DNA from: a virus
Reading direction: 5' to 3' (one strand)
Length of the DNA stretch: 64,000 bases
Virus record (IMG/VR): IMGVR_UViG_3300049830_000285
Coordinates: 113,709 to 177,708 of that record
Part shown: positions 3,001-63,760 of the stretch, piece by piece
Layout of the letters: every line of letters starts with the position of its first letter
Numbering within the stretch: position 1 is the first letter of the stretch
Program-made: the position numbers and the translations under genes
Notes under the pieces: generated by a model
Databases searched by the model: none
Seen by the model: the letters and a program-made list of their open reading frames with translations, nothing else
What the model was told of the DNA's origin: nothing

Positions 3001-6000
3001 GTGGATATTTAGCGCAAACTTTTAAACTAGATGCAATATCTAATGATGTTACCAAAGTCGCACTCCATCTATCTCTTAAAGATTTGACGAATAACCCTGC
3101 CTATAATGCATCGTTGAACAACACCCTTCAAGTTGCAATCTACACCACTAGTGGTGGTCAGCCAAATTCTCCAATCGCGACAGTCGGGACACCTGATACA
3201 ATTTTAGCTAGCGATGTTGCTTTTAGAGGTTGGCATTATGCCAATATATCTGTTACTGGATTAACACCCGGTGCGACCTATGCTCTCGTTGTCAATGAAA
3301 ATATTGCACCGGGTGGCGTGTCTGCTTTCAAATGGCACACCTCCAAAGTGTTGAATCCCTACCCTGAGGGAAAAGCGTTTCAAGGGGCGTCTTGGACTTC
3401 TTTAACAACTCAGGATTACTACTTTAGAGTGTATCAGCCAGCACCTCCAATTGCTACTGAAACTATTGAGCCTGTTGGCTATTATGACAACACACATCCT
3501 ATCGGCTGGAGAGAAGGCGAGGGCAGGGGATGGTATGTATCAGGCGGACAATTAACTTCTAATATCAATCCATTAATTAGTTTAGTGGTAGATGACTCCC
3601 GTTCTGCAAAATGGAGTGACCCAAGTGTGACTAATCCAAGAGAAATTGCGATTAGCAATTTCTTATCCACAATCTTTCAGTTTACTGATGTTGTCCTTTC
3701 TGGAACTATATTTCCTGAGTTAGCGGGCGAAACATTTTATCCAACATTTGCTGATTTCTGGGTGTTTGGCTCTGGAATATTAGAGCGAACAAACGGTTAC
3801 ACTAATGATTTAATTGGAACTATTCAAGTTGTGGCATCAGCATTATATGAACGGGGTTCGTTAAGTGAACCTTATGATACATCAGAAATAGCTTTTGGTG
3901 CGCTTTCGCCACAGTCATTAGCCGATGCAATCGTAAAAGATAATGATGAAGATAACAACATTGAAAGAACAAAACGCATAGTTGAATATATGAATTCAAT
4001 CGGAGCTTTAAATCATGATGATATCGTTACTTATTGGAATTCATTAGCTGTCAGCGAACAAAGTGAATGGGGCACTACTGGTGGATTTTTAGATTCTAAT
4101 ATTCCATATTACTCTGACGTTAGAGGTTTTGTTCTTGGAAGATTCGGAGAATTATTCTGTCCGTTGGCAGTTGCTATTGTTGATGGTGACGGCGAGGGAA
4201 ATCCATCAGATGTAGCATTAATGTTACAAAGCGGCTGGGATGCAGACGGCATCAAGCCATTAGTTCTAGGATTGGGTTCTGGTCATCGACAGCAAGGGCT
4301 TAGAACAATGGCAACAGAAGCGCTTGGAAAACATGTTTCAATTGTAGATGGAACAGTCTCTACTGGAGATTGGGATAATACCATAATATCTATTTTACCG
4401 GGTGGCGAAAATACGGTTTATACTGCTATTTGGAATAGGATTTATGATTATGAAGAACCCACTTTCATTAGTGTAGTCGGAGCAAATTGGATTTCAACTA
4501 TCGGGTCAAGCGTAGTTCTTCAATACCGATATACCATGGATAGAGTAAATTGGTCTCCTTGGATAACACATAGTGGTGGCGGGTCTGAACTTACCATCGG
4601 TCTTAAGCTTCTGGGAATTGAATATCATGTAGAATTGCAAGAAGGTATAGACTTTGGGGAAAAATCGCTATCTAGTATTAGCTCTCTATATCACAAAGTT
4701 ATCACTCCTGGGTATAAGTATTTATTTACAAAACCGCAAGATGTTGATGGTATGGTGTTTGAGTATTTGTTATCTCAAGACACAGGAACAGATTGGCCTT
4801 CAACTGCCGATTTACAATGGGGAATCATAAGAGGCGACTCTGTTGATTTCGCTGATTTCGAACAAATGCGCAAAAACCGAAAGGGCGCTTTGCCAAATCG
4901 ACAGGCAAGCTTGCAATTTACAGAAGAAGTAAAGCAAGATAAATTAGCTACCGTTACAAGTGATTTTCATTACTATTATGTAAAGAATAGCGCTGGACAA
5001 ACAGTTACATGGTCAACTACAGACATCATTACCGTTTATGCGCTTGTGCTGGGGCAATATCGCGAAGTAGTCCCGGATGGTTCTGATGGTGATTTTGGAT
5101 TTGTGTATTTTGCAAATGCTCAACCATCAGATTTGATTATCAAAGTAACAATTGTAACACCTCAGCATTTGTACACATCTAGCGGAGAAGCCACCACTAC
5201 AAAAGATGGGCGAACTTATGTTCTGGCTAATGGTAGCTGGCCGAAAGACGCAACTGCGATAGTTATTGTTAATGGAAAAATCAAACGCGGGGGATTCTGG
5301 TTATCTCCAGATGATGGTACTGTCACTTTTTCCAAAGAAAGAGAGAGAACAGACCTCGTAACAGTATATATTGAATTTAATCATAAATTCCGCGTGGGAG
5401 TGGAAATTAAGAACTACTCTACTGTTTCAGATGTTACACCGTCGAACTTTGGTTTGTTCTATACAGCTAAGCCAGATGGAAGATTGGTTTTCTTATATGA
5501 CAATACTAATCCTCCAGCTATTGTTGACAATCTTGTTTCTATCTTACCAAATGGATATCATGAGCCAACATCGAGTCAGAGATTGCTTTTGAATTATGTG
5601 TTTTATTCTAGTGACAACAACACTGAGCGCGGCACAAAAACAACATGGTGGAGAAAAAGACCATCAGACCCGGCTACATATTCACTGCCAGAAGACCCCG
5701 ATTATCCAGGACAAAACTTCCGGCAAATGACTTATGAAAATATTGAAACAGTTGGAATGACCAATAGACACTTCCCGGAATACAACAATCGTACTGTTGA
5801 GCGAAAAGCAGATGTTAATGCGAGCGATTGGTTTAAGACTTCAGATATTATTCGAGTGAAAGTCACTCCATCTGATGGAATATCTGATGGAATTATAGTT
5901 CAATCGTCTGCGACAACTCTTACAGGTGAGCATGTTCCATATGTATCTGGTGTAACTATTTCTGCGACTGGCAAGGTTGAAGAGCCTGCATCTAGTGGTA

Positions 6001-11784: not shown

Positions 11785-12273
11785 GCCAAGCTCTTTGAAA
11801 ATAACTCGATTACGTTCATGGGTTTCTGCTCTGATTTTTTCAGCATTTTTAGGATAATTTTCTCCATCATTTCTGCACTCCCACAATTCTGCATGACATC
11901 GGTCACAATTTGTTCTGCACCAGCCGCCGTTTCTCCATGTGCCCTCTAAGCCACAATCTTCGCAAATTTCACCAGACTGTTTTTCCGCATCACTAATCAA
12001 AGCACTAAATTTTTTATCTACATCAACCGCGCTCGATGCATAAAATCTCAAGGTGCCAAATTTTTCCTTTACTTGCAAAACGGAATATGTTGGGTCGAGC
12101 TTAATTAATTCAATGTGTAATCTAGCTACCAATGGTAGCCATCCATCACCTACGCCGCTCCAACATGCATCATTGCCTATGTTGGGTTCTAAAAAATGTA
12201 AAGTTTTCATGTTTGCTCTAAAATATGACAATATCCTCTGGGTGGTCAACAACGATTCCGTTATCTTCTTCAA
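11767..12273 (-). CDS. Conserved phage hypothetical protein
   Basis: QVKEKFGTLRFY motif and CEDCG..CDRC Cys pairs. Confidence 0.65.
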   Translation of the reverse strand: MKKITESLLTTQRILSYFRANMKTLHFLEPNIGNDACWSGVGDGWLPLVARLHIELIKLDPTYSVLQVKEKFGTLRFYASSAVDVDKKFSALISDAEKQSGEICEDCGLEGTWRNGGWCRTNCDRCHAELWECRNDGENYPKNAEKIRAETHERNRVIFKELGLTYHC

Positions 12274-14440: not shown

Positions 14441-14783
14441 TTTTTTGATAGGTTTTTCCAGTTTCGGTTAAAAAATGTAATCCAAGAAATGCCATAGTTC
14501 CAATAACAGCGGCTAAGACTAATCCCGTTCTTAATCCATTCCAAATTAAATCCGATGTACTCAACTGTCCACTCCAGCTAATAGCGGCATGATTGGTTTT
14601 ACTTGTGTCTAGTACATATTCTACTGGTACCCATCCGAGAGTGCTTCCACGCCACACATATGTCCAATTGCGAGTTTTACCTTCGCAGCAGTAACAAATA
14701 TGATTGCTGCGAAAATGGGCATTACCCATAGGACATTCTCGATAGAGAAATGGAAGAAATTTTACTTTCCAATCTTTGTTCAT
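14397..14783 (-). CDS. Hypothetical membrane protein
   Basis: One hydrophobic segment, GLVLAAVIGTMAFLGL. Confidence 0.55.
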   Translation of the reverse strand: MNKDWKVKFLPFLYRECPMGNAHFRSNHICYCCEGKTRNWTYVWRGSTLGWVPVEYVLDTSKTNHAAISWSGQLSTSDLIWNGLRTGLVLAAVIGTMAFLGLHFLTETGKTYQKNVQEKYERIQKNSE

Positions 14784-24616: not shown

Positions 24617-24691
24617 TGGTGGGCCACGAAGGAATCGAACCTTGTCCTACACCGTGTCGAGGTATTGTACTACCATTATACGTCGCAGCCC
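24617..24691 (-). tRNA. tRNA-Val(GAC)
   Basis: Cloverleaf, loop UC-GAC-AC, encoded CCA. Confidence 0.85.
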
Positions 24692-30077: not shown

Positions 30078-30106
30078 TTGTGAACTTTCGTTCGGTGTAT
30101 AAATCT

Positions 30107-30148
30107 AAAAAAAAAGAAGGATTCGGTCTTTCTGACCGAATCCTTCTT
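30107..30148 (-). terminator. Attenuator terminator of the Met/Val/Ile/Ala tRNA operon
   Basis: 15-bp stem AAGAAGGAUUCGGUC/GACCGAAUCCUUCUU followed by a U tract. Confidence 0.9.
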
Positions 30149-30171
30149 GCATTTCTCTTTGCTTGTGGAAC

Positions 30172-30249
30172 TTAGGTCAGAACGTCCTCTGCGATAATCG
30201 CAGCGGCTACAACAATTGCCATGACCATAATGTTTCTGTTGTATCTCAT
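30172..30249 (-). CDS. Attenuator leader peptide MRYNRNIMVMAIVVAAAIIAEDVLT (not in the ORF track)
   Basis: 14 consecutive Ile/Met/Val/Ala codons; AAGGA upstream; the stop region pairs with the terminator 5' arm. Confidence 0.85.
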   Translation of the reverse strand: MRYNRNIMVMAIVVAAAIIAEDVLT

Positions 30250-30276
30250 TTTCGTTCTTTGTTCCTTTTTAAAATC

Positions 30277-30353
30277 TGGGTGCGAGCTGCTGGAATCTAA
30301 CCAACCTACCGGGGTTTATGAGACCTCGCTCGTCAACAGTAGAGTAAGCCGCA
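30277..30353 (-). tRNA. tRNA-Met(CAT)-like, atypical
   Basis: GAGGU-CUCAUAA-ACCCC, bulged acceptor stem, T-loop UUAGAUU, CCA. Confidence 0.6.
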
Positions 30354-30358
30354 TATTC

Positions 30359-30400
30359 ATTATGCACTGTCAATATGCATTTGTCAACAACATTTGAGGA
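30359..30400 (-). promoter_or_regulatory. Sigma70-like promoter with upstream TCCTCA
   Basis: TCCTCA-7-TTGACA-17-CATAAT. Confidence 0.8.
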
Positions 30401-41938: not shown

Positions 41939-42667
41939 TTAATCCTTAAATAACCTCAGTTTATTGTAAACACATCTATCTAATCCAATCGCAATCTCAA
42001 AATTTATTAAGTCTTTTTCCACTGACTTGAATCGGGCTTGAAAAGGAACATCTTTACGAAGCGACAAACTCACGACTTCCATCCATTTATCGTCATTCAA
42101 AACTTCTACGTCCATCGTTTTGACGCTGTAATCTGGAAGCCTGTCGCTTGGAATCAATCTAGTCTCTAAGCCGACATGTAAATGAATCATTTGTTCGATG
42201 ATTGGTGCTATAGCTTCGAAATAATCATTCTTTGTATCAGCGGTAAAGATGCATTGGAACTCTTGCTGATAGAACTCTTTCAAACGCATGTTTTTGCTCA
42301 CCTGGTCTTGTTCTTTTCGGAAGCTTTTAGCAGTCTGCCAAACAACTAGAGGCGGTAACGTTAATTGATTATGCAACAAATGTTCCGCGTAGGCATAACT
42401 TGCTGGCGTAGTCTCAGGGCGTAACACAAGTTCTCGCTCGTCTGGTTTTGGTAGTAAATGAAAAACATCTTCAGTGGTGTATTCTTTGCTAATCAAGTCT
42501 TTCGGAATAAGCGAAGGCGCTTCAATTTGATGGAAGCACCAAGCTTTATTAGTGTCCAACAAAGCCTCTTGGATATCTTGTGCAAAAGTGGTGCTAAGCT
42601 GCTGTCGCATCAAAATCTCTTTGCTATTCCAGAATGGAACACCATTTAGATTGTAAATGTTTTTCAT
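41939..42667 (-). CDS. Truncated class II aaRS core, GlyRS (alpha2-type)-like, lacking the anticodon-binding domain
   Basis: LRPETT, WQTAKSFRKE..RLKEFYQQEFQ, LPDYS..TMDVEV, EIAIGLDR, then stop. Confidence 0.75.
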   Translation of the reverse strand: MKNIYNLNGVPFWNSKEILMRQQLSTTFAQDIQEALLDTNKAWCFHQIEAPSLIPKDLISKEYTTEDVFHLLPKPDERELVLRPETTPASYAYAEHLLHNQLTLPPLVVWQTAKSFRKEQDQVSKNMRLKEFYQQEFQCIFTADTKNDYFEAIAPIIEQMIHLHVGLETRLIPSDRLPDYSVKTMDVEVLNDDKWMEVVSLSLRKDVPFQARFKSVEKDLINFEIAIGLDRCVYNKLRLFKD

Positions 42668-43023
42668 TCTTGCTCACTCTCTTTATTGCAGAAAGCAAGT
42701 AAAACGTCAATCGCAGCAATGGATTCTTGGTCTAATCCATCTTTCCATCTTTCTTCTGTTCCTGGTGTGCAAGTAAAGTTTCGAGTTGTCGCCATGCACT
42801 TGCGTAATAAAGGTGCGACATCCCAATGCATAGCATTAGTTATAGTTAGCATTGCTGAAAAACCAACAGTCAATTTTTCAACATTATCTCTAAATGATTC
42901 CGCGCTATTATGAGACATAACAACGCCCACCATTAATACCTGTAATCCTCTTGGAATAATTTTACGTACTTCGATTGGAGTTGGAATGTCACAATTTGGA
43001 ATGACGGCAATATGCGTGCTCAT
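42664..43023 (-). CDS. Hypothetical protein
   Basis: 119-aa ORF. Confidence 0.5.
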   Translation of the reverse strand: MSTHIAVIPNCDIPTPIEVRKIIPRGLQVLMVGVVMSHNSAESFRDNVEKLTVGFSAMLTITNAMHWDVAPLLRKCMATTRNFTCTPGTEERWKDGLDQESIAAIDVLLAFCNKESEQE

Positions 43024-43060
43024 TCATTCATATTACCACAACGAACACATATGAGGAAAA

Positions 43061-43137
43061 TGGAGCCCGGTGCAAGATTCGAACTTGCGATTATCGTTTT
43101 GCAGACGAGCACGTTAGGCCAGCTTCGTCAACCGGGC
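43061..43137 (-). tRNA. tRNA-Cys(GCA)
   Basis: Loop CU-GCA-AA, U73, CCA. Confidence 0.85.
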
Positions 43138-43325
43138 TTAACTATTTTACCTTACTTTTTCTTTTTTGGTGCTGGGGCTGGTTTGCCCTTAGGAGCCTGC
43201 GGAGCTGTCTTTGCTTGTTTCTTCTGTTTGTCTTTGCCTTTTGCCATAGTAATAAATCATACTCTATGCGAAATGCTACTTCCTACATAAATCCTCAATA
43301 AATATATGTGTGATATAATATAAGT

Positions 43326-43697
43326 GTGAAAGAAAATCTTGAACAACGAATGCGAGACACACTTGATGCCGACTTCCCTGAATGGGTGTGGCAACTAAAA
43401 CCAGGAAACCGTATTGCGGTTTGTTCATATCAGGGAAGCTGGAGCCCACAAGGAACTCGTTATTGGTATGCAAAAATCTTTGTCTGCATATCTGGTAAAT
43501 CAGTTTATTATTACGACCTCGATGACACCATGCGTTGGAATGACCTAAATGATGCTCAGAAATTAATCTTTAGAGGCGGAATAAATTGCACACATTACTC
43601 ACAGTCTCTTAAGCCGATTGAAGAACTTGCTGCAATAGATGCTGAAATTGACGCATATCAGGCTGCTCATCCAGATTGGCGCACTCAAGGTATGTAA
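43326..43697 (+). CDS. Hypothetical protein
   Basis: TCCTCA-16-TATAAT upstream. Confidence 0.55.
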   Translation: MKENLEQRMRDTLDADFPEWVWQLKPGNRIAVCSYQGSWSPQGTRYWYAKIFVCISGKSVYYYDLDDTMRWNDLNDAQKLIFRGGINCTHYSQSLKPIEELAAIDAEIDAYQAAHPDWRTQGM

Positions 43698-43991
43698 TCA
43701 GTCTGTTAACAAAACAAAATCATAGCATGAACAGTATTTGCATCCAACGTGCAAATTGTCTTCATATCCGTCAAAATGGCGATAGTAAGGATGCCCACAT
43801 TCGCACATCTTGCTGTCGCCATAATCAGCTCTGTAGACTTTTTCAGGGTGAGCTTCTACATAGCTTTTGACGAATTCAATAAATTCATCCATTCCCTTAT
43901 TGCCAATAAACTCAGCCATCATTTGCATTTTCAATGTATCGTCCCCGTATGGAACTCCAGCTTGTTGAAAAGCACGCATTAAATCATTCAT
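43698..43991 (-). CDS. Hypothetical protein with CECGH..C..CSC Zn motif
   Basis: Cys pattern. Confidence 0.55.
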   Translation of the reverse strand: MNDLMRAFQQAGVPYGDDTLKMQMMAEFIGNKGMDEFIEFVKSYVEAHPEKVYRADYGDSKMCECGHPYYRHFDGYEDNLHVGCKYCSCYDFVLLTD

Positions 43992-44004
43992 GGCTCATTA
44001 TACC

Positions 44005-44874
44005 TCAGACGCCTCGCGTGATATAATCCCAAAGCATTTCTCTGTTAATGTCAACAGCAATCAAATCGCCGTCTTCACACAGTTCTGTTCCCCATTTACC
44101 TTTTTGATAGATTAATTTTCCTCTTAACCAAGTTGCGCATTCTGGGTGTAAATGACATACGGCAGCCGTTGGGTCGTGAAACATTTTGACAGGCTGATGC
44201 TCTAAATATAAATCCATATGTTCATGGAAGACTTCCATTGCACGATTAGTTGGAGCATGTTTCTTAACACTGGCGTGGATATCTTTGTCATAAACAATGG
44301 TGTGGCAAAGATGCTTACCAACAAAGGAACGCTCAGCAACATTTAGGTTCAAAAATGCGTGAGCCCCGATTTGAGAGCCACCTAAATTAAAGGTGTTTTC
44401 GAACAGTTTATTTTCAAATTTCTCTAAACGAACAACATCTAAATTGTGAATTTCATAACCCATAAAACCGCCTTGCATTGTCGCTCTGCCCAATTTACCA
44501 CCGGATAGTAAATAAGGGCCGACGCTGTGTAAAGGCCCACAAACAAAAAGTTCTGCGTCGGGATGTTTTATCATAGCCTCAGCAATGATATTTTCTCCCA
44601 CACCATCGGGTTCACATTCAAGTGGATAGTTGTATTGCTTAAGGAAGTCTAAATGCCTACCGCCAACAGATGATTTATCTCGATTAGGTTTCCCGCTGCC
44701 AACAGGACAATCAACGCCACATTCTTTAAGCAGCCCTTTGGCGACAGCAATCTGGTCTTTATCTCCCGGACTAACAGTAACAGCGACAATCTCAACGCCA
44801 GCGCTAATTAAATAACACAAAGCAAAAAAATCATCAGCATCGCGCCCGATATCGGTTTCAACAATAAGTTTCAT
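44005..44874 (-). CDS. Nucleoside hydrolase (IU-NH family)
   Basis: ETDIGRDADD, MQGG, NTFN, FHDP. Confidence 0.82.
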   Translation of the reverse strand: MKLIVETDIGRDADDFFALCYLISAGVEIVAVTVSPGDKDQIAVAKGLLKECGVDCPVGSGKPNRDKSSVGGRHLDFLKQYNYPLECEPDGVGENIIAEAMIKHPDAELFVCGPLHSVGPYLLSGGKLGRATMQGGFMGYEIHNLDVVRLEKFENKLFENTFNLGGSQIGAHAFLNLNVAERSFVGKHLCHTIVYDKDIHASVKKHAPTNRAMEVFHEHMDLYLEHQPVKMFHDPTAAVCHLHPECATWLRGKLIYQKGKWGTELCEDGDLIAVDINREMLWDYITRGV

Positions 44875-45422
44875 GTGCTTATTGTACCTGAACTGAATAG
44901 TGTGAATGTGGACAAATAGTGCGAGTTAATCTACCAATTTCTTGGCTGATTCTATCAAAATTTGTAAAGGCGTACCCTTGTATTTGTGCTGCCACAAATG
45001 TGGGTCATAAGGTGCTGTGGCGATTGCCCATTCAATTCGCTCTTTCTCAAAACCTTCTGCGACTGGAGTCATTACGCGAATGGTTCTTGGGCTGGATATC
45101 CCACAGATGAACTCGTTTTTTAGTGGCATGATATTTATTCTACCACGCCTGCGTGTGGGTCGAAGTCTTTATTCAACGCATCTTCAAGTTTGTCTGGAAA
45201 ACCATCGCCGCTATATTCCCAAGCAGCATCGTGCATATTCACTTCTACAACTTCGCAATCTTTGTAAAGCTCAATGATTCTCTTAGGTTCCATGCGTTCC
45301 CATTTGTCTTGCTGGTAGTCAACTAACTCACCATTCTTGTAATATCCCTCTCCCCACTCAACTCTAACGACTGTAAGCACTGTTTGTGACATACTGTTAT
45401 TATACATGAAATTGGACTTAGA

Positions 45423-45761
45423 TTATTCAATGGTGTCTTGTAATATGCGTTCCCATGCGTCCCAGTATTCAGACGGGCCTGTAGGAAAAGTAGATGTGCC
45501 ATTTCGACGGAGATTGCACTCCTCTAAAGCCGCCTCTTCGCTTGCATAATGTTCATGAAAAGCTGGTGTACCTCCAGCATTAAAAACCAAGGCCCATATT
45601 CTGACACCTGTTTTGTTAGCAGGGAAACATTCGACTGTTGCATCAGATAATCGTCGCGCAGCATCAGCTACGCCCTCTGCATGTTTTCGACTGTAATATC
45701 CAGAATGGTAACTTTCCCCGCGACATGTGCCACGCACTTCATAAAGTTCAATTCGTTCCAC
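45423..45761 (-). CDS. Hypothetical protein
   Basis: 112-aa ORF. Confidence 0.5.
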   Translation of the reverse strand: MERIELYEVRGTCRGESYHSGYYSRKHAEGVADAARRLSDATVECFPANKTGVRIWALVFNAGGTPAFHEHYASEEAALEECNLRRNGTSTFPTGPSEYWDAWERILQDTIE

Positions 45762-45905
45762 TGATTTATTATAGCATAAATTGGAGTGCAGGTGCCAGTC
45801 TTTATTTGCACATCCGTCATATGTTCGGTGCTAGACGCTCCACGTATCCTGCTTTAAACCAGTCGTCATCTGGCTATGCATACATATTATACCACAACTT
45901 AAAGA

Positions 45906-46005
45906 TGGAGCGCTCGATGGGATTTGAACGTGCATTTGCATCCTTTACCTTACTCAACCTTCGCAAAGTTGGCGGTTACATGCAAAGTACCTCGATTACG
46001 AGCGC
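45906..46005 (-). tRNA. Atypical tRNA-Arg(GCG)-like RNA (100 nt)
   Basis: Acceptor GCGCUCG/CGAGCGC-U-CCA; arm CAACU-UUGCGAA-GGUUG with an extra flanking helix; weak T stem. Confidence 0.5.
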
Positions 46006-46503
46006 ATGTTTGGTGCTTTCTTGTATATTGTTCACGTGACTAATTTACAAGAAGAAGAAGTAATGCTATATATAGCTGGGTTTTGTGCGCATGTGTTTTT
46101 ACACCTTGAATTAACTCCTAAGTGCAAAACAATGCTTGCAACACTTCGTGAAGATAATAAGTTAAAAGCAGCTTTTAACAAAACTCTTGATGAGATGGGC
46201 GAGGTTAACACTTTGACGCCAGACGGTGTTGTTAAAATTAAAGATTTTATCAACAATTAGGTAAGGGTATAGACTCTTCGCTCCATTCTTGATGTAAGCG
46301 TTTTCTCGTGTCTTCTGCATCTTTCTCACTGATAACAGCAGCGTCCCAATATGGAGTTCTACAAATATCAGTGCATATCGTACAGAAGAAAGTGATGATA
46401 TCGTTGTTTTTGGTAGCTTTCTGATAAATCAGTCCACTTTCTCCACGTAAAAACCAACGAGGGTATTTTTTGTCTTCTTTCATTAGTTCCTTGAGATATA
46501 AAT

Positions 46504-46579
46504 TGGTGCCCCAGGCGAGACTCGAACTCGCGGCTTTCACGTTCGAAGCGTGAATCTCTATCCACTGAGTTACCGGGGC
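46504..46579 (-). tRNA. tRNA-Arg(TCG)
   Basis: Canonical cloverleaf UCACG-CUUCGAA-CGUGA, CCA. Confidence 0.92.
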
Positions 46580-46594
46580 ATGGTTGATTAAAAT

Positions 46595-46683
46595 TGGAGC
46601 GCACGACAGGATTCGAACCTGCATTTGAGATTATCTCACTCCTTTAACTAATATAGTTTCGAAGACTACTGGTGTACGTGCGC
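46595..46683 (-). tRNA. Atypical D-armless tRNA-Arg(TCG)-like RNA
   Basis: Acceptor GCGCACG/CGUGCGC-U-CCA; GUAGU-CUUCGAA-ACUAU only 7 nt after the acceptor strand; ~30-nt variable region; normal T arm. Confidence 0.55.
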
Positions 46684-46697
46684 GTTTTTAAGAAAGT

Positions 46698-46772
46698 TGG
46701 AGCATGAGCAGAGAATCGAACTCTGTCCCCTGATTTTGCAGACCAGTACCTAAACCATTTGGCTTCTCATGC
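46698..46772 (-). tRNA. tRNA-Cys(GCA)
   Basis: CUGGU-CUGCAAA-AUCAG, U73, CCA. Confidence 0.88.
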
Positions 46773-46788
46773 ATTTGTTGATTAAATT

Positions 46789-46864
46789 TGGTCTCCTTGA
46801 CTGGACTCGAACCAGCGGTCTCAGCCTTCGCAGGGCTGTGTTTTATCCTCTAAACTACAAGGAG
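46789..46864 (-). tRNA. tRNA-Arg(GCG)
   Basis: CAGCC-CUGCGAA-GGCUG, CCA. Confidence 0.9.
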
Positions 46865-46867
46865 ATA

Positions 46868-46942
46868 TGGCTGAAGAGACTAGATTCGAACTAGTATCCA
46901 AATTGTTCAAAGCAATTTATCCTACCTTTAGACGACTCTTCA
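46868..46942 (-). tRNA. tRNA-Gln(TTG)
   Basis: U1-A72, G73, AAUUG-CUUUGAA-CAAUU. Confidence 0.88.
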
Positions 46943-46951
46943 ATATTTTTT

Positions 46952-47025
46952 TGGCTGAGGAAGCTAGATTCGAACTAACATTTTTCGGGTCAGAGCCGAT
47001 TTTCCTACCTTTAGAAGATTCCTCA
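46952..47025 (-). tRNA. tRNA-Gln(CTG)
   Basis: U1-A72, G73, loop CU-CUG-AC. Confidence 0.88.
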
Positions 47026-47040
47026 GTATTTCTTTCACAC

Positions 47041-47059
47041 TATTCAATTTTCAATGTAC
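47041..47059 (-). promoter_or_regulatory. boxA-like antitermination element
   Basis: GUACAUUGAAAAUUGAAUA in the spacer after the first tRNA. Confidence 0.55.
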
Positions 47060-47072
47060 GTTTTTAAAGTTT

Positions 47073-47148
47073 TGGCTGAAGAGGTTAGACTCGAACTAAC
47101 ATTTCACAAATTCAAAGTTTGGGTTCCTACCAATTAGAAGACTCTTCA
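47073..47148 (-). tRNA. tRNA-Gln(TTG)
   Basis: U1-A72, G73, loop CU-UUG-AA. Confidence 0.82.
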
Positions 47149-47280
47149 GTATGGTTCCAGGCAGTAATGAAATGTTACTAATAGCACTAAGCTGGAATGT
47201 GAGTTATGAAACGGTCACACTCGCTTAGTGGCGAGACTGATTTATGGAGTTAATAAGCAACTATTAGTGTCAGTCCCGAC

Positions 47281-47391
47281 TTAGCGAGTACGCCGACAAC
47301 GTTGCTGGAAAAAGCATCGAGCGCAAGCAACACGAGCAGTGTTCTTGATTTTTGCGCTGTAGTTAGTGATTGTGTTCATGATGCTATTCAT
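47281..47391 (-). CDS. Leader peptide MNSIMNTITNYSAKIKNTARVACARCFFQQRCRRTR (not in the ORF track)
   Basis: 3' half enriched in CGN-Arg, Cys and Gln codons; lies between the promoter and the Gln/Arg/Cys tRNAs. Confidence 0.75.
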   Translation of the reverse strand: MNSIMNTITNYSAKIKNTARVACARCFFQQRCRRTR

Positions 47392-47445
47392 TTTCGTCTC
47401 TCCGAATGCTAAGCCTGGATTATGGGCGGCTTTCCCTTACGTTTT

Positions 47446-47489
47446 ATTATGTCGTGTTCATCTAGCTTTTGTCAACTAGATTTTGAGGA
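47446..47489 (-). promoter_or_regulatory. Sigma70-like promoter with upstream TCCTCA
   Basis: TCCTCA-8-TTGACA-18-CATAAT. Confidence 0.75.
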
Positions 47490-47646
47490 TTTTTTGTTTA
47501 AATCGTCTTTTGAAGCTTCATTAAGTTCAATATCTCGCTGAGTATATGTTCTGAAAGTTCTACTTATGCGTTTACCGCTAAGAGCTTGACGGCTATGAAG
47601 TCTTCGATAGTCGTAGACTTTCATCATAAACCAAATGTAGAAATTC

Positions 47647-48597
47647 TTAAACATTGCTTAATTCTCTTGGTGTATGCACCATTGGGAGTCCATTACCAAT
47701 AGTTTTCTTTGCGAACTTAGTGTTGTTGCGCATCCATTCTTGAACGTACCAAAGCTGCCCACAGCCACCACCGATGTCGTCTTGTCCTGCTGGGTCAAAA
47801 CATCTGGTGCTGAAACCAAGATTCATAAGCTTGGACATAAAGTTTTGCGCAAGCTCTCGTTGTCGTTGATTGGCAGCAGCGATTGATTCGTCTCGTTCGC
47901 AAATAACAGAAATAGTTGCTTGCCAAATACGAGGGTCGAACAAATCAGCAAGGCGTTGAGCGTCTGCATCGCTTGTGTTGTCGGCGTGAGCGCAATAGTT
48001 GTAGAAAGGTTGTCGTCCAGTTCGCTCGAAGAATTCAACTCCGCGCTCTGCAATCTGCGCAAGTGTGAGCTTTTTCTTGAAAGGAATCAATTTATCACGA
48101 TTTTCGTCAGTTGATTCATGAACTGAAAATTGTAATCCGATGGTTGGGATTTGCTCAGCGGCTTCGAAGAGAGGATTGTAGTCAACATCTGGCGCTGATG
48201 TGCTAATGAGAAGGGCTGCCCGTGGATGTTGTTCGTAAAGCGTGTGCATAGCTGGAATGAGCGCTTTGAGATTAAGAAGAGGTTCACCCATACTCATAAA
48301 CATGATTTGGAGCCGCTGGACATCTTTTGTGTCGATTCCCATGTCTTCAAACAAATGATTTGGTTGAGCAACGATTTCATCACTTGTAAGAGAACGAACG
48401 AAATAGTCTCCAGCTCCACAGAAACGGCAACCAATAGGGCAACCAGACATCGTAGAACAACAAACTACTGTGCGTTCATTGTAGGTTGGGTATTTGTAGA
48501 GAACTGATTCTGCGACAGCATTGTCAGTTGTGAAAACATACTTGAGTACATTCTCGTCCGAAGAAGCGATTCGTTTAACGTCAGACCAATTAGGCAT
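47647..48597 (-). CDS. RlmN/Cfr-family radical SAM RNA methyltransferase
   Basis: CSTMSGCPIGCRFC, MSMGEPLLN, SVH, GQDDIGGGCGQL. Confidence 0.88.
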   Translation of the reverse strand: MPNWSDVKRIASSDENVLKYVFTTDNAVAESVLYKYPTYNERTVVCCSTMSGCPIGCRFCGAGDYFVRSLTSDEIVAQPNHLFEDMGIDTKDVQRLQIMFMSMGEPLLNLKALIPAMHTLYEQHPRAALLISTSAPDVDYNPLFEAAEQIPTIGLQFSVHESTDENRDKLIPFKKKLTLAQIAERGVEFFERTGRQPFYNYCAHADNTSDADAQRLADLFDPRIWQATISVICERDESIAAANQRQRELAQNFMSKLMNLGFSTRCFDPAGQDDIGGGCGQLWYVQEWMRNNTKFAKKTIGNGLPMVHTPRELSNV

Positions 48598-48603
48598 TCC
48601 CTA

Positions 48604-48906
48604 TTATGGCACAGTATTCGAGTTTTGAGGAATATATAGTGATGGTCTATCGAGGCATGGGAATAACAATTCTCTTAATTTGTCTTGCAAGATATTTTCA
48701 TAGACTGCATCTAGCCATTGATGCCTTGTTGTCATTGAAGCTGGTTTGCAATGTTGCTTGCCCTCAAAATAAACAGCGTATACTTCACCTTCATCTAAGT
48801 CATCAGTTTTATTGGCTGGAAAATAAGTGGTTGCATATTCTTTTCGAACGGCAAATCCATATGATTGGATAATCTTAATTTTATCTTGCGTAGTGACGTA
48901 AAGCAC
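48604..48906 (-). CDS. Hypothetical protein
   Basis: 100-aa ORF. Confidence 0.5.
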   Translation of the reverse strand: MLYVTTQDKIKIIQSYGFAVRKEYATTYFPANKTDDLDEGEVYAVYFEGKQHCKPASMTTRHQWLDAVYENILQDKLRELLFPCLDRPSLYIPQNSNTVP

Positions 48907-48921
48907 AAGTGAATTATACCA

Positions 48922-49653
48922 CTATTCGTCAATCGCCTCATTTTCTGAGGCGATTATGGCTCTTAATCGCCTCACTCTAGCTCTGGCTAATTCTTCAATA
49001 GCGCCTTTCTTAACTGCAAGGGCACGTTTTGAAGGAATCAAGTCGTAATGATGTGTGCGTTTATCTTGGAACCAACACCATTTAGTTTTATTTTTTGTGA
49101 GGGCAATATCCATACAATCCCAAAGACATGTTGCAATTGTGGCAGAGCACTCGGTAGCCTTCTGGATATTCATTTTTTCTGAGCCAATAATAGAATGAAT
49201 GTCCTCCTTTATTTTTTCCGAACAACTCTCTTCTGTGCTTTCCTCCTCCTCCGTTGATGTGGTCAATACACAAAAATTCTTTAGTGGTTTCTCCACAACA
49301 TTGACATTGGTTTCCGTATGCTTTAAGGGCGGTTGCTCTGTAATCGGCTTGTCTTTGTTTGGTTTGTGATAAAAGTGCGCATCGGTTGTCTTGATAGTAA
49401 TTGCTGTTAAATTCTTTGACACAAGTTTTGCATTTTTGTCCAGCGATTCTTGCTCCACCGCATTTTGAGCATATTGGTTTGTGTAGCGCCATTGCTTACA
49501 TATTGTACATGCAAGTGGTGTTTTTAGCCCAATTAAATCAGCCATAGCGTGCAATTCTTCATCAGAATCGGCTGTCATATGACACCAAACCTTCCATCTC
49601 AGTTTAGTGTCATATGTGCGAAGCTCGTCAACATAAACGCTCATAATTAACAA
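48922..49653 (-). CDS. DUF4031-like protein interrupted by a 441-nt in-frame insertion
   Basis: VYVD..WCHMTAD..ELHAMADLIGLK [147-codon insert] WCWFQ..HYDL..RALAVKKGA. Confidence 0.7.
   Translation of the reverse strand: MLIMSVYVDELRTYDTKLRWKVWCHMTADSDEELHAMADLIGLKTPLACTICKQWRYTNQYAQNAVEQESLDKNAKLVSKNLTAITIKTTDAHFYHKPNKDKPITEQPPLKHTETNVNVVEKPLKNFCVLTTSTEEEESTEESCSEKIKEDIHSIIGSEKMNIQKATECSATIATCLWDCMDIALTKNKTKWCWFQDKRTHHYDLIPSKRALAVKKGAIEELARARVRRLRAIIASENEAIDE
49088..49492 (-). CDS. HNH-like endonuclease nested in another frame inside the DUF4031-like gene
   Basis: YGNQCQCCGE..LCIDHING..LCHNCN. Confidence 0.85.
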   Translation of the reverse strand: MALHKPICSKCGGARIAGQKCKTCVKEFNSNYYQDNRCALLSQTKQRQADYRATALKAYGNQCQCCGETTKEFLCIDHINGGGGKHRRELFGKNKGGHSFYYWLRKNEYPEGYRVLCHNCNMSLGLYGYCPHKK

Positions 49654-50361: not shown

Positions 50362-50448
50362 ACCCTTCAACGGGAGTGTCCTGCCGTTAGACGACTGAAG
50401 CTTGCGCTAAAGCTGGGAATCGAACCCAGGTTACTCCCTCTGAAGAGT
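50362..50448 (-). ncRNA. Circularly permuted tRNA-like RNA (YrlA-like) module 2
   Basis: Order T arm, acceptor-like hairpin capped by GCAA, D arm; ends close as CUCUUCAG-A-GGGAG/CUCCC-G-UUGAAGGG. Confidence 0.65.
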
Positions 50449-50452
50449 TTCT

Positions 50453-50541
50453 ATCCTATAACGGGCTGCTCTAACCACTGAGCTACACCGCCGCGAACGA
50501 CGATGGTTGGATTTGAACCAACGACATACCCTCTATAGGAC
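50453..50541 (-). ncRNA. Circularly permuted tRNA-like RNA (YrlA-like) module 1
   Basis: T arm GUUGG-UUCAAAU-CCAAC, acceptor CAUCGUC/GGCGGUG capped by G-UUCG-C, D arm GCUC/GAGC, closing stem GUCCUAUAG/UUAUAGGAU. Confidence 0.75.
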
Positions 50542-50593
50542 TTCTTTATTCTTCCTCAACTCTATTGTTTTGTCAACCGATTTTGAGGAAAAA

Positions 50594-63555: not shown

Positions 63556-63597
63556 AAAAAAAGAAGAACTACCAGCTTCTCCTGGTAGTTCTTCTTT
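63556..63597 (-). terminator. Attenuator terminator of the Asn tRNA operon
   Basis: 16-bp stem AAAGAAGAACUACCAG/CUGGUAGUUCUUCUUU plus U tract, 3 nt before tRNA-Asn. Confidence 0.9.
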
Positions 63598-63627
63598 AAG
63601 TTTCCTTTTTTTGAAGTGGCGCTTGTG

Positions 63628-63696
63628 TTACTCAGCGCTTCTACCAGTGGCTGGTGAAGTATTAGCGTTATTATTATTGCTGAGAGTGTAAAGCAT
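63628..63696 (-). CDS. Attenuator leader peptide MLYTLSNNNNANTSPATGRSAE (not in the ORF track)
   Basis: 5 Asn codons within 6 positions; contains CUGGUAG complementary to the terminator 5' arm. Confidence 0.85.
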   Translation of the reverse strand: MLYTLSNNNNANTSPATGRSAE

Positions 63697-63717
63697 GATT
63701 GCGTTTCCTATTGACTT

Positions 63718-63760
63718 ATTGTATCCTCTGTGTTATCTTGTTGTCAACTGTTTTTGAGGA
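63718..63760 (-). promoter_or_regulatory. Sigma70-like promoter with upstream TCCTCA
   Basis: TCCTCA-7-TTGACA-18-TACAAT. Confidence 0.75.

Follow-up and report, generated by a model that had tools for sequence, protein, structure and literature searches.

Organization of a Gln/Arg/Cys tRNA unit in a phage genome

The source record is an IMG/VR phage sequence of 177.7 kb with 40% G+C, estimated to be about half complete; the window, meaning the whole stretch of DNA analyzed here, is its last 64 kb. The tRNA genes of the window are all on the minus strand, and the features described below are likewise on that strand and in window coordinates unless another source is named. At the locus of interest, a TCCTCA element (47484–47489) sits 7–8 nt upstream of the -35 hexamer of a sigma-70-type promoter, TTGACA-18-CATAAT (47446–47475), which matches the consensus at 11 of 12 positions and has the top score between 42500 and 49000. 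The promoter is followed by a 48-nt untranslated leader, a leader ORF of 36 codons plus UAA (47281–47391), a 132-nt spacer and a tRNA array. A GGAG ribosome-binding site, read from the sequence, lies at 47400–47403, 8 nt 5' of the AUG at 47391. The array (46504–47148) comprises Gln(UUG), Gln(CUG), Gln(UUG), Arg(GCG), Cys(GCA), an aberrant UCG-anticodon tRNA-like element and Arg(UCG), in keeping with a preliminary description that had placed tRNA-Arg(GCG/UCG), tRNA-Cys(GCA) and tRNA-Gln(CUG/UUG) downstream of the leader. The aberrant element (46598–46683) scores 37.3 bits against the Rfam tRNA model and was missed by ARAGORN; a 4-nt stub replaces its D arm, and it carries a 27-nt insertion 5' of the T arm.

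Directly upstream of the leader promoter lies an RlmN/Cfr-like radical-SAM gene (47647–48597), to whose relatives some sources give the name 23S rRNA adenine-2503 methyltransferase. It has thousands of relatives and is widespread in giant phages, with a neighborhood that is not conserved. Further upstream, a DUF4031-like gene (48922–49653) has 243 codons, compared with 87–95 in two of the related contigs introduced below (L313 and L315); both of its ends match the short forms, and it seemingly contains an insertion of ~150 codons with several Cys pairs. Elsewhere in the window, an additional tRNA at 24621–24690 is detected by Rfam only (41.8 bits), with no ARAGORN call.

The leader codons match the downstream tRNAs

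The leader ORF is rich in codons for exactly the amino acids carried by the tRNAs behind it. Its Arg codons are CGU (codon 20), CGA (25), CGU (31), CGG (33), CGU (34) and CGC (36), with no AGR; its Cys codons are UGC (23), UGC (26) and UGU (32), and its Gln codons CAG (29) and CAA (30). The earlier count of six CGN Arg codons, three Cys codons and CAG CAA is exact. AGR codons (AGA/AGG) account for 41% of Arg codons in the phage's ORFs, and the chance of drawing six CGN codons is ~0.04; CGN is also the sole kind of Arg codon read by the phage's GCG and UCG anticodons. The whole record contains 1,956 ATG ORFs of 12–60 codons; a density of 11 Arg/Cys/Gln in 18 residues is reached by only two of them, one being the leader.

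The match is concentrated in codons 24–36 (47284–47322), hereafter the regulatory block, which holds CGA, CGU, CGG, CGC, UGC, UGU, CAG and CAA. By standard wobble rules, these eight types are every codon that the five anticodon species downstream would read. Translated by hand, the other two frames of the block give no Arg/Cys/Gln reading. The C terminus of the predicted peptide is strongly basic. A Phe-Phe pair in the leader is replaced by Tyr-Phe in all four orthologues described below, indicating that Phe is not a sensed position.

Three tRNA units of the phage share a promoter class

The arrangement TCCTCA-N7/8-TTGACA occurs at four sites in the 177.7-kb record, three of them 5' of leader-tRNA units and one 5' of a Y-RNA-like RNA. 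One sister unit (63556–63760) has the same promoter type, a leader ORF (63696–63628) in which five of six codons are Asn, a 16-pair terminator with a U-tract, and two tRNA-Asn genes. The other (30096–30400), again with this promoter type, has a leader ORF (30249–30172) with fourteen consecutive Ile/Met/Val/Ala codons, a 15-pair terminator followed by U9, and a Val/Ile/Ala tRNA array. Each of these two leaders is the unique genome-wide top scorer for its own amino-acid set. Their terminators, of 15–16 pairs with U7–U9, have 5' arms that pair with the end of the leader ORF; shuffled sequences do as well in 4 of 1,000 cases for the Asn unit and in 25 of 1,000 for the Val/Ile/Ala/Met unit. By its TCCTCA-N7/8-TTGACA promoter and codon-matched leader, the Gln/Arg/Cys unit is a member of the phage's own three-unit family.

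As a control for specificity, we scanned ~150 gaps upstream of tRNA genes in nine related phage records. This returned two further clear leaders, one matching Pro/Asn/Ser (in L109/L121) and one matching Ser (in L085/L122); two more gaps were flagged and judged weak. That so few clear leaders appear in ~150 gaps indicates that the match between leader and tRNAs is specific and that the phenomenon is sporadic among relatives.

The leader frame and its regulatory block are conserved in orthologous units

A search of the INPHARED phage collection returned no close relative of the phage. Orthologues were reached in a larger assembly collection through protein look-ups of relatives of the flanking radical-SAM and nucleoside-hydrolase genes (~80% identity). 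Orthologous units were found in metagenome contigs, with promoters at position 9694 of L313, 2798 of L315, 5414 of L321 (identical to L324) and 3399 of L322. All four are 77–82% identical to window 47391–47154, have the same promoter type, and carry Gln, Arg(GCG) and Cys tRNAs behind the leader. The full TCCTCA hexamer is matched in L313 and L315; L321 and L322 show that hexamer in their promoters as well, and a search with the looser CCTCA likewise matched L321, L322 and L324. Together with the window, the orthologues give a comparison set of five sequences representing four distinct lineages.

The leader frame is kept in all four orthologues. L313 has lost the first AUG and kept the second (codon 5), and it carries a 6-nt CAGCAA insertion that is in frame and adds two Gln codons. 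The regulatory block is the best-conserved stretch, with 4 of 39 columns variable among the five sequences, against 26 of 72 in the remainder of the ORF (codons 1–23 and the stop) and 42 of 87 spacer columns. In the N-terminal half of the leader the amino acids change freely, as expected for a leader peptide with no function of its own. Variable ORF columns are spread over the three codon positions as 9/10/11; with no third-position bias, conservation of the block could be at the RNA level alone. In the orthologues the ORF is separated from the promoter by a tRNA-like module and has no Shine-Dalgarno sequence before it. The earlier proposal that this is a codon-matched leader is supported by the sister units, by the common promoter class, and by the four orthologues that keep both the frame and the regulatory codons.

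Other routes to relatives gave none. Synteny around the radical-SAM gene, followed through 80 IMG/VR and 80 metagenome loci, revealed no downstream leader or tRNAs even at 81% protein identity, and six contigs with radical-SAM relatives (L314 and L316–L320) contained no orthologue. Scanning IMG/VR with the promoter motif produced 90 random-looking matches and no leader-tRNA unit, and an exact-pattern scan of IMG/VR with the 3' end of the leader produced no match. In L315, an HNH endonuclease gene (3598–4383) interrupts the tRNA array, separating the Gln tRNAs from tRNA-Arg(GCG).

The unit lacks an intrinsic terminator

A consensus scan of this strand detected no intrinsic terminator from the stop codon up to the tRNA, and U runs in the spacer are all shorter than four. 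The preliminary description had reported the lack of a U-tract terminator, and this is borne out in the window and extends to all four orthologues. The tail 3' of the strongest hairpin lies at the 83rd–86th percentile of random positions, with the phage's real terminators far above it. We considered whether the competing hairpin described below (H2) might serve as a weak terminator: it has a positive d'Aubenton-Carafa-type score, but ~1,400 sites per strand equal it, which makes the score meaningless in this AT-rich genome, and its tail is unremarkable. The presence of the terminator-less design in all four orthologues argues that it is conserved and is not the product of recent decay.

With respect to Rho, C exceeds G throughout the spacer, with a C/G ratio of 1.2–1.75 in 78-nt windows, a value that ranks no higher than the 93rd percentile for the phage's own strand. 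An Rfam scan of 42000–49000, taken to E values of up to 1, returned only tRNAs and noise, with no T-box or other cis-regulatory family.

Two alternative RNA folds share one strand

The region from the end of the leader ORF to the first tRNA-like element can form two folds that exclude each other. In one, strand A (47279–47295), consisting of codons 33–36, the stop codon and 2 nt, pairs with a strand A' in the spacer; the RNAalifold consensus of the five sequences gives 16 pairs (47295–47279/47229–47212) that enclose a hairpin, H1. In the other, the same spacer strand, which we also call D (D/A', 47212–47230), contributes 47230–47215 to a 15-pair hairpin, H2, whose 3' arm is strand E (47185–47202). 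Because D/A' can take either A or E as its partner, the two pairings cannot coexist. H1 (47232–47278) has a 9-pair stem (47278–47270/47240–47232) and a variable loop with a conserved GUUGC.

These folds extend the helices originally noticed. The stop region ACUCGCUAAG (47289–47280) had been described as pairing at 9 of 10 positions with CUAAGCGAGU (47228–47219); this helix is real and longer than noted, forming part of the 16-pair A:A'. Its proposed competition with the hairpin between CACUAAGC (47230–47223) and GCUUAGUG (47192–47185) also holds, since the two use a common strand, lie close in energy and are each retained despite sequence change. The helix between GGGACUGA (47277–47270) and UCAGUCUC (47240–47233) lies in the stem of H1. 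By contrast, a helix between ACUAAUAGU (47268–47260) and GCUAUUAGU (47185–47177) is found in this phage only, its relatives keeping just a GUUGC:GYAAC core. That core, a possible pseudoknot between the H1 loop GUUGC and a GYAAC 3' of H2, is recognizable by eye in each of the five sequences; it is misplaced in the alignment, and compensatory changes are absent.

Both folds are maintained across the five sequences. A:A' has one compensatory change, C-G to U-A in L313. H1 is paired in 100% of cases, with one compensatory and two one-sided changes, and H2 is paired in 98.7% of cells, with three one-sided changes that all preserve the pair; one H2 position changes from G-U to A-U in one lineage and from G-U to G-C in another. 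Shuffle controls of covariation in the five sequences were not significant. In the window, A:A' with H1 folds at -30.5 kcal/mol and H1 with H2 at -27.6 kcal/mol, and the gap between the two states is 3–8 kcal/mol in all five sequences. The A:D duplex has an energy of -20.1 kcal/mol, equaled by 23 of 1,000 shuffles, compared with 74 of 1,000 for the short 10-nt pairing of A. In equilibrium folding with ribosome masks, H2 formed at every ribosome position when just the short A was used. Together, these data are suggestive of two conserved, mutually exclusive folds, with the end of the ORF contributing to one strand, while falling short of proof.

One elaboration was rejected. A three-state model, in which codons 26–32 also pair with E as drawn by RNAalifold, has a duplex of only -7.5 kcal/mol, and 599 of 1,000 shuffles are as good. 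A hairpin-stabilized pause after H1, which we do not propose, would fit a G-10/Y-1/G+1 match in the window; the match is not preserved in the orthologues, which have 1–2-nt insertions.

The competing hairpin includes the 5' strand of a tRNA-like element

The spacer has no second copy in the genome and matches no tRNA model, and we rejected an origin from a repeat or a different tRNA. The element that strand E opens is a truncated tRNA-Gln-like remnant of 45 nt (47152–47196), made up of a 5' acceptor strand and a D-arm-like part and ending in ACCA. It aligns with tRNA-Gln cloverleaves of 87–88 nt that ARAGORN calls in L315 (3154–3240), L321 (5765–5852) and L322 (3751–3838). These cloverleaves are atypical, with a 16-nt variable region, and do not reach an Rfam E value of 0.001. 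In all three contigs strand E corresponds to the first 11–12 nt of the cloverleaf, that is, the acceptor 5' strand and D stem. L313 has the same short form as the window, and strand E is intact in both.

E is thus the 5' strand of the first tRNA-like element, and H2 pairs the spacer with that strand even where the tRNA body is missing. Since the 3' arm of the competing hairpin is an acceptor/D-arm strand, the arrangement points to precursor folding or processing rather than to termination. The truncation of this first element here and in L313 means that its own tRNA yield cannot be the output in this phage.

A candidate ribosome-read switch and its alternatives

We propose, at a probability of about 0.5, that the leader is a translated sensor of charged tRNA-Arg (the CGN readers), tRNA-Cys and tRNA-Gln, and that it belongs to a two-state switch gating the folding or processing of the tRNA precursor. 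More generally, the phage probably senses tRNA supply with the ribosome and without the usual transcription stop signal. We infer from the features above that the ORF is translated, and likewise the polarity and output of the switch. A and D are transcribed before E, and A:A' should therefore form first during transcription. If cognate charged tRNAs were plentiful, ribosomes would reach the stop codon and melt A:A', and D would switch to E; H2 lies outside the ORF and for that reason would persist instead of being reopened, and in this replete state it would lock the precursor head in a fold other than that of a tRNA. If Arg-, Cys- or Gln-tRNA were scarce, the first hungry codon would hold the ribosome upstream, A:A' would persist and E would stay free. 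Four of the five tRNA species have their first hungry codon at position 25 (CGA), 26 (UGC), 29 (CAG) or 30 (CAA), and with a ribosome held there no fewer than 12 of A's 17 nt would remain free. As neither the phage nor its relatives have a U-tract, the output cannot be intrinsic termination, unlike in the two sister units; the output we favor would be gating of the precursor-head fold and hence of processing.

In a more specific form, which we regard as possible though doubtful, leader codons and the 5' acceptor strand of the first tRNA would compete for one anti-sequence, and stalling would decide whether the precursor head takes up a tRNA fold and is processed, a form of post-transcriptional control. 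Counting against the mechanism, sequestering the 5' strand of one tRNA leaves the sensing of Arg and Cys unexplained; their inclusion suggests an effect on the whole operon. Also against it, codons 31–36 are on strand A, and a ribosome stalled there would favor H2, the opposite polarity.

An operon-wide effect would follow if the same leader and switch acted through Rho-dependent termination in the 132-nt spacer, which would account for Arg and Cys sensing besides that of Gln. Such switches are established in enterobacteria, in the mgtA, corA and tna leaders. On this account the 3' half of H2 (~47218–47193), a C-rich and G-poor strand, would be a loading site open in one fold and hidden in the other, and both the lack of an intrinsic terminator in all five sequences and the excess of C over G throughout the spacer, up to a ratio of 1.75, agree with it. 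We nonetheless consider the Rho version unlikely: that ratio reaches only the 93rd percentile, A:A' would leave ~25–35 nt exposed, short for Rho, and, if A:A' is the starvation state and exposes the site, the operon would shut down just when tRNA is scarce, and the switch would have to be read the opposite way.

The reading as a sensor that gates precursor folding also has to be weighed against accounts in which nothing is sensed. The unit might be a decayed attenuator that lost its U-tract and is read through constitutively, with the ORF and helices as leftovers; both sister units in the same phage do have canonical terminators, and the first tRNA-like element is truncated here. Decay would not be expected to preserve what the four orthologues, equally devoid of a U-tract, have kept, namely the frame, the codon block (4 of 39 columns variable) and both helices with pair-preserving changes, and L313 has even added two Gln codons in frame, so we hold decay to be improbable. 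It is more improbable still that the frame is untranslated, with the block serving as one strand of a processing stalk and its Arg/Cys/Gln content arising from base composition, or that it encodes a small basic peptide that has its own function. Substitutions without third-position bias, orthologues without a Shine-Dalgarno sequence, the pairing of the block with strand D and the strongly basic C terminus would all fit such a view, but Arg/Cys/Gln appear in only one frame, the open one, which has an AUG (and, in the window, GGAG) and in which the 6-nt indel is in frame. Moreover, the phage has two other, unrelated leaders whose fit to their own tRNA sets is just as good, and the N-terminal half varies freely in amino acids, unlike a functional peptide.

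Comparison with known leader-controlled systems

The closest parallels are the classical multivalent leader-peptide attenuators of enterobacteria (thr, ilvGMEDA, ilvBN, trp, his and pheA; for the pheL leader, see PMC3082878), which likewise have a short promoter-proximal ORF with regulatory codons for multiple amino acids clustered near its 3' end. In these systems too, the end of the ORF is one strand of a set of mutually exclusive helices, and the ribosome reads supply. The phage leader differs from them in preceding tRNA genes, so that the sensed product would be the tRNA itself, and in lacking the 3:4 terminator with its U-tract; in addition, a 47-nt hairpin stands between regions 1 and 2, and a tRNA-like element supplies region 3 with its 5' strand. 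Of the features that define a leader-peptide attenuator, the unit has the promoter and ORF, the cognate codons and the exclusive helices, and it has no intrinsic terminator. It resembles its two sister units in promoter type, codon-tRNA matching and position at the head of a tRNA array, and differs from them in that they carry terminators of 15–16 pairs with U7–U9, whereas the Gln/Arg/Cys unit and its four orthologues carry none.

Leader ORFs with alternative stem-loops and no intrinsic terminator are known from tnaC-tnaA of E. coli and from the mgtL-mgtA and corA leaders of Salmonella, all of which are Rho-dependent. The phage unit is like these switches in having no intrinsic terminator and in a design where ribosome position would decide the fold; it is unlike them in that no clear rut site was found and in that the genes regulated are tRNAs. 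T-box riboswitches similarly report charged-tRNA supply to genes of the translation apparatus, but they bind uncharged tRNA directly and have no ORF. Full-text literature searches yielded no published case of leader-peptide control of tRNA genes. We also looked for an attenuator-like leader at the tRNA-Phe genes pheU and pheV of E. coli and rejected it, as their promoters abut the tRNA and leave no ORF.

Why phages carry tRNA genes, and when these are used, is an open question on which the leader bears. The reasons proposed include codon-usage mismatch, loss of host tRNA during infection and escape from tRNA-cutting defenses. A leader that tests the codons of its own tRNAs would provide direct feedback, the tRNA set being made only when ribosomes are short of it. 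Conservation of the sensor in at least five phages without a terminator, and its wiring to the 5' strand of a tRNA-like element, raise the prospect that ribosome sensing may couple to an output other than intrinsic termination.

Further leaders and RNA elements in the phage and related records

The two additional leaders from the control scan differ in design. A related giant phage (record G005) has one of them in L109 (minus strand, 1210–1400), the same as L121 (minus strand, ~14512–14712). This leader is rich in Asn, Ser and Pro codons; behind it come a GC-rich terminator ending in a U-tract and tRNAs for Pro, Asn, Pro, Asn and Ser. In L085 (minus strand, 1753–1800), the same as L122 (minus strand, 11907–11954; record G001), a 15-codon ORF has nine Ser codons drawn from both codon families. 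It ends 22 nt 5' of tRNA-Ser(UGA) and tRNA-Ser(GCU), with a strong hairpin across the stop codon, and its first residues resemble those of the Asn leader in the window; it has neither a U-tract nor a ribosome-binding site.

The fourth promoter of the family (TCCTCA-N7-TTGACA) drives a Y-RNA-like RNA with a tRNA-like module at window 50437–50589. This RNA matches Rfam YrlA at 35.7 bits (E 2.4e-6), below the gathering score of 69. A weak tRNA match (50405–50492) overlaps it, and a gene with a KxDG ligase-like motif follows (50324–49647). A module similar to the Y-RNA-like RNA lies between the promoter and the Arg/Cys/Gln leader, on the same transcript, in L313, L315, L321 and L322, and these copies receive no Rfam call at an E value of 0.001.

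In the Val/Ile/Ala/Met unit, a tRNA-like sequence (30040–29925) lies between the attenuator and the first tRNA-Val. It has a CAU anticodon-like loop, a GGTTCGATTCC T-loop and a CCA end, and is called by neither ARAGORN nor Rfam. The first RNA after the leader is thus an aberrant tRNA-like element in both the Val/Ile/Ala/Met and the Gln/Arg/Cys units.
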